64,000 nt of DNA, taken from UHGV virus genome UHGV-2202118, one strand, 5' to 3'. The notes under the pieces are model-generated. The model did no database searches. It saw nothing but the letters and a program-made list of their open reading frames with translations, and had not been told where the DNA came from. The stretch is from a virus. Below are positions 49,407-51,204 of the stretch, piece after piece (the first letter of the stretch is position 1; each line of letters begins with the position of its first letter). The position numbers and the translations under genes are program-made.

Positions 49407-49483
49407 CTGGTACAGGTGGAGGGAATTGAACCCATCGTCTTACTGATTAAGAGTCAGCCGCATAACCATTTTGCTACACCTGC
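49407..49483 (-). tRNA. tRNA-Lys(CUU), weak T-stem
   Basis: Acceptor GCAGGTG/CACCTGT, anticodon arm GCTGA-CTCTTAA-TCAGT, T-loop TTCAATT with only 3 clean stem pairs. Confidence 0.5.
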
Positions 49484-49489
49484 ATTAAT

Positions 49490-49566
49490 TTGGTACACCT
49501 AGAGAGATTCGAACTCACACTGAGCAGATTCTAAGTCTGCTGCCTCTACCAGTTGGGCTATAGGTG
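49490..49566 (-). tRNA. tRNA with anticodon UAG (Leu by anticodon) but short variable arm
   Basis: Anticodon arm GCAGA-CTTAGAA-TCTGC is perfect; T-loop TTCGAAT; acceptor GCACCTA/TAGGTGT; 77 nt, no long variable arm. Confidence 0.5.
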
Positions 49567-49568
49567 CA

Positions 49569-50021
49569 TTAAATCAAATGCCTTGAGAATTGACTGTGGC
49601 AATTTGGACATAAGAACCGAAGATTCTCTTTTCTATCATCTAACCAGTTCTCATTAATGTGGTCAACATCAAGAGTTAGAGGGTTGCCCAACCACTCCGG
49701 TAACTGACCGCATTTAGAGCATTTGTATTCGATACCAGATGCTATTAAAGCTCTTCTTAGTTGTGAAGACCTTGCTCTTTCACCAGATTCACGTAGAATT
49801 AAGATTTCTTCAGGCTTTCTTTTTGGTACAGTTTTAATCTTACCAGCCTTTTGTCCGAGGAAATGAGAAGTGTCTATTTCAAACTTCTCTATAACACGCT
49901 TTAGATGTGACTGAGAACCACCTGATGGTTTTCTCCCAAGCTTTATAAGCACTTCTCTGAATGATACTGAACCCTTTACTAAAGGTTCAAGAATATCTTT
50001 AGTCAAACTGCTACGTGCCAT
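49569..50021 (-). CDS. HNH endonuclease embedded in tRNA array
   Basis: 150 aa; CSKCGQ...HINENWLDDRKENLRFLCPNCHSQ HNH/zinc motif; GGGAG RBS. Confidence 0.7.
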   Translation of the reverse strand: MARSSLTKDILEPLVKGSVSFREVLIKLGRKPSGGSQSHLKRVIEKFEIDTSHFLGQKAGKIKTVPKRKPEEILILRESGERARSSQLRRALIASGIEYKCSKCGQLPEWLGNPLTLDVDHINENWLDDRKENLRFLCPNCHSQFSRHLI

Positions 50022-50292
50022 ATGTCAATCTCCCATTAAATCTTTTTAGAGAACTTCTAAGAACCTAAGCAACAAGGTTCCACAACAAGCTGTAATAACC
50101 TTAGAAGCCCTCTAAAAAGACCTAAAAAGGTCTTTGCATAGTCTTGTTTAATCCGGTGACTAGAACCTTTGGAGAGCTTGATATTATCTCTTCTCCGTGA
50201 CACCTACTAGGTGCTTTACTGTGCGTGTACGACAATACACGAGGGATACCAAAGCAACATCCGAATGAAGCTTGGCTTTAAATCTTATTAGG

Positions 50293-50379
50293 CGGTAAGT
50301 AAAGGAGTCGAACCCTCACCGTATCTCTACAGTGGCAACTGTTTTCAAGACAGTTTGGCTACCATTAGCCGCTACCTAC
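50293..50379 (-). tRNA. tRNA-Ser(UGA), class II long variable arm
   Basis: Acceptor GGTAGGT/ACTTACC, anticodon arm ACTGT-CTTGAAA-ACAGT, long variable arm, T-loop TTCGACT; CCA not encoded. Confidence 0.65.
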
Positions 50380-50392
50380 CCCTAATAAGACT

Positions 50393-50475
50393 TTGGCATG
50401 GGACGGAGGAGTTGAACCACTTTGAAACGGTTTTGGAGGCCGTTGCTCATGCCTTAGAGTCTTAACATCGTCCCA
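50393..50475 (-). tRNA. tRNA-Trp(CCA), atypically long D region
   Basis: Anticodon loop CTCCAAA, T-loop TTCAACT, acceptor GTGGGAC/GTCCCAT, CCA encoded; D region and T-stem non-canonical. Confidence 0.45.
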
Positions 50476-50618
50476 CACTATAATTCGAAGCTTACCGTAT
50501 TATCTCAACACTGTAAAGCACCTTCTCAGATTATTTACATGTTCTGGAAAACATGAGATACAGACCACCTCCTTACACGGAGACCCGATAAGGTCGTCTA
50601 AGCAATCTGCTAACTAAA

Positions 50619-50695
50619 TTGGCACACCCTACAGGATTCGAACCTGTAACTAACGATTTAGAAGACCGTTGCTCTATCCAATTGAACTAAGGGTG
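50619..50695 (-). tRNA. tRNA-Arg(UCU)
   Basis: Acceptor GCACCCT/AGGGTGT, D-loop AATTGGATAG, anticodon arm ACGGT-CTTCTAA-ATCGT, T-arm ACAGG-TTCGAAT-CCTGT, CCA encoded. Confidence 0.7.
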
Positions 50696-50926
50696 CATTA
50701 ACATTTTAAAGGGTACTTATTGCATTTAAGCCAAGACCCATAAGGGATACCCTTTAGAGTGTTGCCCACATTATTAATCATACCGTGGGCGAGTACGCCA
50801 AATTCTTTGATGAGGGATTGGAAGACCTCACTGGTGTTTAGCCTATCAAGCTACTGCCAGAAAAACATTGTCGTTTGCATTTATTTTAAATTTGCAAAAT
50901 AGACGCTACGCAACGAAAACTAAGGT

Positions 50927-50955
50927 TACTATAAAGTAGTCACATCTCAATGTCA
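50927..50955 (-). promoter_or_regulatory. sigma70-like promoter on minus strand inside the tRNA array
   Basis: Minus strand TTGACA (plus 50950-50955), 17-nt spacer, TATAGT (plus 50927-50932). Confidence 0.5.
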
Positions 50956-50970
50956 ACAACTTTATTGAAA

Positions 50971-51046
50971 TTGGTACTGGTAGGTGGAATCGAACCACCG
51001 ATGTTCCCTTATCAGGGGAGTGTTATAACCTTCTTAACTATACCAG
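50971..51046 (-). tRNA. tRNA-Ile(GAU)
   Basis: Acceptor GCTGGTA/TACCAGT, anticodon loop CTGATAA, T-arm GGTGG-TTCGATT-CCACC, CCA encoded. Confidence 0.7.
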
Positions 51047-51047
51047 C

Positions 51048-51124
51048 TTGGAGGTTCAGATGGGAATCGAACCCACATTCATAGGGCTTATGAGACCCCT
51101 GCATTACCTTATCTGCGACTGAAC
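51048..51124 (-). tRNA. tRNA-Met(CAU)
   Basis: Acceptor GGTTCAG/CTGAACC perfect, anticodon loop CTCATAA, T-arm GTGGG-TTCGATT-CCCAT, CCA encoded. Confidence 0.7.
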
Positions 51125-51128
51125 CATA

Positions 51129-51204
51129 TTGGTAGAAGTGGAGGGATTCGAACCCATCGCCTGTCAGATTAAAAGTCTGCCGCATCACCATTCTGCTACA
51201 CTTC
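51129..51204 (-). tRNA. tRNA-Lys(UUU), weak T-stem
   Basis: Acceptor GGAAGTG/CACTTCT, anticodon loop CTTTTAA, T-region GATGGG-TTCGAAT-CCCTCC paralogous to tRNA-Lys(CUU). Confidence 0.5.

Follow-up and report, generated by a model that had tools for sequence, protein, structure and literature searches.

A type I tRNALeu(CAA) of Streptomyces coelicolor has a leucine anticodon and a 5-nucleotide (nt) variable loop and coexists with long-arm leucine tRNAs (PMC6614811), and in Mycobacterium tuberculosis only three of five tRNA-Leu species have long loops (PMC11541572). Animal mitochondrial tRNA-Leu likewise has a short variable loop, with leucine identity resting on A73 and A14; it belongs to an unrelated lineage, is served by a dedicated mitochondrial leucyl-tRNA synthetase (LeuRS), and often has degenerate D and T loops. 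A 2023 review states that tRNA-Leu without the long arm exists in animal mitochondria only, which is too broad. We describe here three tRNA genes, one tRNA-Leu with anticodon UAG and two tRNA-Lys with anticodons CUU and UUU, in a 64,000-nt stretch (the window) of the virus genome UHGV-2202118, and show that the Leu(UAG) gene is a member of a known but little-noticed kind, the type I tRNA-Leu. The same genes were published as ordinary tRNAs in phage Felix O1 (Whichard et al. 2010, PMC3185647), in a paper that is silent on the missing Leu arm and on the bulge in the Lys T stem. As genes they are unremarkable, and hundreds of genomes already have them annotated. We found no paper on short-arm tRNA-Leu in phages, the only mention being one sentence on a mycobacterial tRNA gene cluster (PMC6582537).

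Of the 86 kilobases (kb) of a Felixounavirus (Felix O1-like) genome, about 64 lie in the window: its terminase and portal genes, beside the tRNA loci, are 98 to 99% identical to those of Felixounavirus genomes, and its tRNA region matches that of Escherichia and Salmonella Felix O1-like phages at 94 to 98%. ARAGORN places tRNA-Leu(UAG) at 49491 to 49567 (anticodon at 49531 to 49533; 77 nt including CCA), tRNA-Lys(CUU) at 49408 to 49483 (anticodon at 49449 to 49451; 76 nt including CCA), and tRNA-Lys(UUU) at 51130 to 51205 (anticodon at 51171 to 51173; 76 nt including CCA), all on the minus strand. An earlier note on this DNA had described the three genes from the sequence alone; ARAGORN and Rfam agree that they exist, with the coordinates of that note one base too low. 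The Rfam model RF00005 (gathering score, 29) scores Leu(UAG) at 57.3 bits, Lys(CUU) at 56.9 bits, and Lys(UUU) at 54.4 bits, with E-values of 7e-11 to 4e-10 and full-length matches over model positions 1 to 71; these scores are far beyond chance. The note had named another anticodon or a pseudogene score from automated folding as grounds for refutation; both programs kept the anticodons, and the Rfam scores are above the threshold. All three tRNAs have the 7/4/5/5-base-pair (bp) cloverleaf of RF00005, a genomically encoded 3' CCA, and U8, A14, G18G19, U33, G53, U54-U55-C56, A58, and C61. RNAfold thermodynamic z-scores were not significant and are uninformative for these three tRNAs. The tRNAscan-SE figures cited in this text are published values for Felix O1 and for Mooglevirus Sf14, not for the window: in Felix O1, a Cove score of 52.24 for Leu TAG and one of 60.20 for Lys TTT (PMC3185647), and, for Sf14 Leu_TAG with tRNAscan-SE 2, a top score from the Leu model (67.4), followed by Ile2 (65.7) and Lys (63.4) (PMC12482277).

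The Leu(UAG) tRNA divides into the segments GCACCUA-UA-GCC-C-AACUGGUAG-A-GGC-A-GCAGA-CUUAGAA-UCUGC in its 5' half and UCAGU-GUGAG-UUCGAAU-CUCUC-UAGGUGU-A-CCA in its 3' half. This segmentation bears out the perfect anticodon stem, the UAG anticodon, and the 5-nt variable loop (UCAGU, at 49519 to 49523) that had been read from the letters, and with them the class I frame. Bacterial class II tRNA-Leu has a variable arm of more than 10 nt; at 5 nt, the phage tRNA lies outside that class and is a type I tRNA-Leu, with a 5-nt loop in place of the long variable arm. The note's assumption of a class II form for bacterial tRNA-Leu is true of the Escherichia coli host but not of bacteria in general, as short-arm chromosomal genes exist, mostly in Actinomycetota, S. 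coelicolor included. The D arm is of the leucine type, with a 3-bp stem, an unpaired C13·A22, and a 9-nt loop (AACUGGUAG), and is accompanied by A15:U48 and A73. The non-canonical positions are C13·A22, U50·U64, and G1·U72, of which a mismatch at 13·22 is the normal state of a leucine tRNA. A suppressor or recoding role was considered and rejected: the anticodon 5'-UAG-3' pairs with the leucine codons CUA and CUG, and a suppressor reading UAG needs the anticodon CUA. None of the three genes is a pseudogene or a suppressor.

BLAST found no match to the phage Leu(UAG) gene among 5,426 complete E. coli genomes, and the comparison with E. coli leuW was made by hand alignment. The two tRNAs share the anticodon, a D-arm design with a 3-bp stem, an unpaired 13·22, and the loop AAYUGGUAG, A15:U48, A73, and a GAGUUC T arm. 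Their D arms read GCC-C-AACUGGUAG-A-GGC in the phage and GCG-A-AAUUGGUAG-A-CGC in leuW, and the variable region ends with GU in both, although it is 13 nt long in leuW and 5 nt long in the phage tRNA. Further, leuW is 85 nt long, with U8-G9 and the anticodon loop UUUAGGU, compared with 77 nt, U8-A9, and CUUAGAA in the phage tRNA. Unlike animal mitochondrial tRNA-Leu, the phage tRNA-Leu keeps all standard tertiary positions.

A BLAST search with the 83-nt Leu region returned 298 phage records. Among the 60 matches listed, all annotated ones are tRNA-Leu, and their alignments leave no gap for a long arm. Type I tRNA-Leu genes are present in Ounavirinae, T5-like, and rV5-like (Vequintavirinae) phages of enterobacteria and also in phages of Acinetobacter, Pseudomonas, Streptomyces, Gordonia, Mycobacterium, Enterococcus, Myxococcus, and Synechococcus. 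Four Ounavirinae-type clusters were examined (three from classified Ounavirinae and one from Yersinia phage P778); in these, the leucine tRNAs, with anticodons UAG, UAA, CAA, and AAG, are all 77 to 78 nt long, and tRNA-Ser and tRNA-Tyr retain the long arm. Scanning IMG/VR with the D-arm motif returned 120 loci, which hold 192 leucine tRNAs, 162 of them short, with all six leucine anticodons represented; each tRNA-Ser in these loci is at least 84 nt long. Over the phage and cellular loci scanned, the type I scaffold carries all six leucine anticodons and leucine anticodons only.

For covariation analysis, we used 100 distinct 74-nt type I tRNA-Leu sequences, which align without gaps. Paired bases occupy 93.1% of the stem cells, and changes on both sides of a pair are seen in 20 of 21 pairs; the covariation score was matched by none of 500 shuffles, and pairing falls to 33 to 47% when the stem partners are slid against each other. 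Positions 13·22 are unpaired in 99 of the sequences, A14, A15, G18, and G19 never vary, and U48 and A73 show conservation of at least 90%. Compensatory stem variation is also seen within a set of 13 genes from phages of enterobacteria and their close relatives (Erwinia, Pectobacterium, and Yersinia). Type I tRNA-Leu is thus a functional tRNA family and not a product of decay.

The family is also cellular. A motif scan of one genome per bacterial species found 116 short leucine tRNAs in 120 loci. Most of these 116 chromosomal genes belong to high-G+C Actinomycetota (carriers include Mycobacterium, Nocardia, Gordonia, Corynebacterium, and Amycolatopsis) and are the sole tRNA gene within 8 kb. 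They share with the phage gene the D-arm motif UAGCCCAAYUGGYAGAGGCA, A73, and the terminal U48 of the variable loop, which is 5 nt long in 114 of them. Judging from these actinobacterial genes, the S. coelicolor tRNALeu(CAA) probably belongs to the same family as the Leu(UAG) tRNA of the window. The phage gene differs from it in having the anticodon UAG and in residing in a virulent phage of E. coli and Salmonella, where the tRNA-Leu species of the host are long-armed only. The first pair also differs, being G1·U72 in phage Leu(UAG) and G1-C72 in 95 of the 116 cellular genes; G1·U72 is found in 10 of the 13 type I genes from phages of enterobacteria and their relatives, compared with 18 of the 116 cellular genes. 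We considered whether G1·U72 might adapt the tRNA to E. coli LeuRS and dropped the idea, as five tRNAs of the window's cluster, of four isotypes, share this pair, which is therefore not specific.

The genes with the GCCC...AGGC D arm form one lineage. Another short form is the tRNA-Leu(UAA) of Yersinia phage P778 and Pectobacterium phage Arno18, which equals the T4-type tRNA-Leu(UAA) minus a clean 10-nt deletion of the arm (loci L008, 5920 to 5996, and L009, 3578 to 3654, compared with locus L233, 64 to 150). The tRNA-Leu(UAA) of T4 is also a phage-borne supplement to the host set but is long-armed, at 87 nt. The short form derived from it keeps U8-G9 and a GGUCU...CGGC D arm, unlike the family of the window, and so has a separate origin; the arm was lost at least twice independently, and one clean 10-nt deletion can turn a long-armed phage tRNA-Leu into a short-armed one. 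A further IMG/VR locus (L070) has an 84-nt tRNA-Leu(UAA) in which a type I-style D arm, UAGCCCAAUUGGUAGAGGCA, is combined with a long variable arm. It is possibly an intermediate or an ancestor of the short-arm family.

The E. coli leucine identity set consists of A73, A15-U48, G18G19, and A20a and does not include the long arm; E. coli LeuRS does not read the anticodon, and in earlier E. coli work the enzyme tolerated removal of the arm (Giegé and Eriani, PMC9976931). The phage tRNA-Leu has A73, A14, A15:U48, G18G19, and A20a, which amounts to all known determinants for E. coli LeuRS. Its acceptor stem contains A3-U70. Of the two other synthetases that are blind to the anticodon, SerRS requires a long arm and AlaRS requires G3·U70, and both are excluded because the phage tRNA has neither; enzymes that read the anticodon are excluded because A35-G36 would be rejected. 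Leucine is the only plausible identity of the phage Leu(UAG) tRNA on these grounds.

The peculiarity of the two Lys tRNAs is of a different sort. Both contain the GAUGGG...CCCUC T region that the earlier note had pointed out, and an ungapped fold of it yields only three G-C pairs, but the 3-bp T stem deduced from such a fold is an artefact, as bulging one pyrimidine restores five Watson-Crick pairs. In the Infernal alignment, the T stem consists of G49-C65 and A50-U64, a bulged U (49434 in Lys(CUU) and 51156 in Lys(UUU)), and then GGG/CCC, that is, 5 bp. With 6 nt on the 5' strand and 5 nt on the 3' strand, the stem is not uninterrupted. This fold restores a pyrimidine at position 48, and the RNAfold minimum-energy structure of Lys(CUU), which uses no knowledge of tRNA, contains the identical bulged T arm. 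The bulge is occupied by either U or C among relatives and IMG/VR contigs, with the flanking pairs unchanged, and a separate IMG/VR lineage of Lys(UUU) has GUUGGG/CCCAC, with U-A instead of A-U at pair 50-64. The Lys genes match 256 phage records at 95 to 100% identity, almost all from Felixounavirus, Suspvirus, or Mooglevirus, and the bulge is confined to this clade; the more distant Lys homologues of Arno18, phiEa21-4, and P778 have a plain 5-bp T stem, and Arno18 Lys(CUU) shares its entire 5' half with that of the window. The feature is therefore a clade-specific single-base bulge in a 5-bp T stem.

The window's Lys(CUU) is 100% identical to the Felix O1 gene, and Lys(CUU) and Lys(UUU) are paralogues (62 of 76 positions identical). 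Lys(CUU) has a 7-nt D loop and A13·A22, and Lys(UUU) has G13·A22 and a G27·A43 mismatch; both have G1·U72 and A73. E. coli lysine identity lies in the anticodon and A73 (PMC9976931), and U35 and U36 of the anticodon occur, together with A73, in both tRNAs. Their short D arm, GUAGCAAAAUGGUUAUGC, is identical to that of a group of IMG/VR tRNA-Cys species, which probably explains why the Sf14 homologue of Lys(CUU) is preferred by the Cys model (see below). A Cys ancestry of the Lys tRNAs was considered and dropped, since the D arm GUAGCAAAAUGGUUAUGC is also found on Gln-like tRNAs and is not diagnostic. In a hybrid Lys gene on one IMG/VR contig, a Lys(UUU) acceptor stem is joined to a Lys(CUU) body and anticodon, which indicates recombination between the two paralogues.

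Probably, then, all three are working phage tRNA genes that are transcribed within a Felix O1-type cluster and used by host translation. Host LeuRS would load the Leu(UAG) tRNA with leucine for the decoding of CUA and CUG, and possibly of CUU too if U34 is modified as in the host tRNA, while LysRS would charge the Lys tRNAs for the reading of AAG and AAA. The three tRNAs would supply decoders for codons that the AT-rich phage (39% G+C in the window) uses far more than the host does. In 61 long open reading frames (ORFs) of the window, CUA accounts for 10% of Leu codons, AAG for 43% of Lys codons, and AGA for 42% of Arg codons, shares well in excess of those in E. coli. The Felix O1 and Sf14 papers describe the same codon skew and a host without tRNA-Lys(CUU) (PMC3185647, PMC12482277). 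Gene structure, conservation, covariation, family membership, and codon usage are direct observations; from them, the supply of decoders for the phage's own codon usage is most likely the function, and the simplest, with charging by the host enzymes, the decoding range, and any benefit to the phage inferred.

Charging of the Leu(UAG) tRNA by the host LeuRS is likely, because three unrelated groups of enterobacterial phages preserve the type I form, with compensatory changes. A leucine tRNA of T5 can reportedly be charged by E. coli enzymes, as Hunt et al. are said to have found in 1980. Another basis for the charging of T5 leucine tRNA is a published list (PMC4810235). An objection comes from S. 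coelicolor: E. coli LeuRS did not leucylate a transcript of its type I tRNALeu(CAA), from which it was concluded that the E. coli enzyme charges type II tRNA-Leu only (Fan et al. 2019, PMC6614811). Type I charging by the Streptomyces enzyme is permitted by its leucine-specific domain (PMC6614811), and a Pfam scan of 20 ORFs from these 64 of 86 kb (19 of the window's 22 that have at least 280 amino acids and a 150-amino-acid HNH ORF) found no synthetase-like or helper protein; besides the HNH ORF, only replication, nucleotide-metabolism, and structural proteins were seen. Other points also weigh against the three genes being working decoders. The Leu T stem has the U50·U64 mismatch, and A37 stands where the host CUN reader has G37. 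RNAfold did not recover the cloverleaf for Lys(UUU), and the sequences vary too little near the bulge to allow a formal test of covariation. The isotype models of tRNAscan-SE favor Cys (60.7) over Lys (41.4) for Sf14 Lys_CTT and Ile2 (53.6) over Lys (38.4) for Sf14 Lys_TTT (PMC12482277). The literature consulted reports neither charging nor expression of the Felix O1 tRNAs.

A rival idea is that the enterobacterial LeuRS does not leucylate the UAG tRNA, which would be uncharged or mischarged in these hosts and kept as a decoy, primer, or regulator or solely for hosts with a LeuRS that accepts type I tRNA-Leu. The Streptomyces result, the lack of a synthetase-like substitute among the scanned ORFs of at least 280 amino acids and the close isotype scores of Sf14 Leu_TAG are in keeping with that idea. 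We nevertheless regard it as improbable: the cloverleaf, the anticodon stem-loop, and the encoded CCA are kept with compensatory changes in the three phage groups, the scaffold bears all six leucine anticodons and no others, which fits selection for leucine decoding, and all known E. coli LeuRS determinants are present in a tRNA whose A35-G36 anticodon-reading synthetases would refuse, for an enzyme that tolerates arm removal (PMC9976931). The remaining options offered by the earlier note, pseudo-tRNAs in decay or errors of hand folding, are more improbable still. Each gene does depart from the canonical pattern at one or two positions in its stems (C13·A22 and U50·U64 in Leu; the bulge, A13·A22, and G27·A43 in the Lys genes), the z-scores are not significant, and two other genes of the cluster were called pseudo-tRNAs in the Felix O1 paper (PMC3185647). 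Yet the RF00005 scores come to roughly double the threshold, the 13·22 mismatch is normal for a leucine tRNA, and the genes are 95 to 100% identical across about 250 to 300 phage genomes, in surrounding DNA that is only 84 to 88% identical. The changes found in relatives preserve pairs (in Lys(UUU), for example, A3-U70 becomes G3-C70, and in Leu, G-C becomes G·U), and the Leu family covaries strongly. The pseudo-tRNA option was rejected on scores, conservation, and covariation, and the same evidence identifies the three genes as real phage tRNAs, as the note had considered.

A different kind of explanation adds to decoding and does not exclude it, namely, that the short Leu arm and the odd Lys bodies evade tRNA nucleases or toxins of the host or of competitors, so that these tRNAs replace destroyed host tRNAs while still serving translation. 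Precedents exist in that the long variable loop is where Septu and retron-Eco7 cleave E. coli tRNATyr, with T5 tRNATyr escaping through a different loop (PMC13096335), and AriB of PARIS cuts E. coli tRNALys(UUU) between positions 40 and 41, with T5 tRNALys escaping through changes at 39 and 41 (PMC12409363). Like the PARIS-neutralizing T5 tRNALys(UUU), the window's Lys(UUU) is a phage lysine tRNA that differs from that of the host, with U41 in place of A41. However, T5 resistance maps to U39A and A41C, the window's Lys(UUU) (U39 C40 U41) keeps U39 and is changed at 41 only, and the T-stem bulge has no counterpart in the study of T5 resistance. Lys(CUU) (U39 C40 A41) is as in the host and retains the exact string U36-A-A-U-C|A41 that AriB cuts. 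For the Leu tRNA, loss of the arm in Leu only and never in Ser or Tyr points to a Leu-specific cause rather than simple genome economy, and the second, independent loss in the T4-type Leu(UAA) of P778 and Arno18 can be counted in favor of escape. On the other hand, our search turned up no nuclease that is known to act on the tRNA-Leu variable arm, nuclease escape was judged unlikely for the relative Sf14 in the study of that phage, and the short-arm form is a normal chromosomal gene in Actinomycetota and so needs no defense rationale. Escape, for which the evidence is circumstantial, thus seems unlikely, and we hold it equally doubtful that short-arm tRNA-Leu is a general phage device, charged by E. 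coli-type LeuRS despite the contrary report and kept or repeatedly created anew because it is invisible to host or competitor enzymes that recognize the arm, with the bulged, Cys-like Lys bodies acting likewise against lysine-tRNA nucleases.

With supply of decoders as the preferred explanation, interest centers on how an E. coli-type LeuRS handles a short-arm tRNA-Leu. Arm-less leucine tRNAs are common in phage tRNA clusters, and selection maintains the type I form in E. coli and Salmonella phages although E. coli LeuRS reportedly rejects the Streptomyces counterpart. If the phage tRNA-Leu is charged by E. coli LeuRS, beliefs about the specificity of this enzyme need revising; if it is not, a phage tRNA is conserved for a reason other than leucine decoding. 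The short arm is hidden in phage genome annotation by isotype calls made from the anticodon alone, with the class unchecked.

The three genes lie in a cluster of 15 tRNA genes (49245 to 52296; ARAGORN and Rfam), all on the minus strand, in the order Gly, Ala, Lys, Leu, Ser, Arg, Ile, Met, Lys, Asp, Tyr, Asn, Met, Glu, and Pro; Suspvirus mistaenkt has the identical order. The Ser (90 nt) and Tyr (88 nt) tRNAs of this cluster retain the long arm that Leu is without. A G1·U72 wobble starts 5 of the 15 tRNAs (Lys CUU, Lys UUU, Leu UAG, Arg UCU, and Ile GAU), and the second Met(CAU), at 51968 to 52044, has a U1·C72 mismatch. An HNH endonuclease ORF of 150 amino acids (49569 to 50021, minus strand; PF01844, E-value of 7.6e-5; annotated as HNH in phage mistaenkt) is inserted among these genes, and its stop codon lies upstream of the tRNA-Leu(UAG) 5' end by one base. 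Only 82 to 84% of the region is covered in many close relatives, which suggests that inserts such as this ORF differ between them.

Two tRNA-like stretches were also seen on the minus strand. One, at 50394 to 50481, separates Ser(UGA) from Arg(UCU) and is a degenerate element of long-arm size with an 8- to 10-bp acceptor-like helix, to which relaxed ARAGORN assigns a 4-base anticodon and the Rfam tRNA-Sec model gives 21.3 bits (E-value of 0.86); decay of a class II tRNA gene is its probable origin. The other is a partial stretch at 51413 to 51463, within the 430 nt that part Lys(UUU) from Asp; it has an intact T arm, GAAGGUUCGAUUCCUUC, scores at 22 bits with RF00005 over model positions 7 to 64, which is below the threshold, and resembles a tRNA remnant. 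Adjoining the cluster, an ORF of 471 amino acids (52462 to 53877, minus strand) contains DUF2828, DUF7788, and a weak VWA match. Compared by position alone, its counterpart in Yersinia phage P778 is annotated as an RNA-binding protein, and phage mistaenkt likewise has a conserved ORF in this place.

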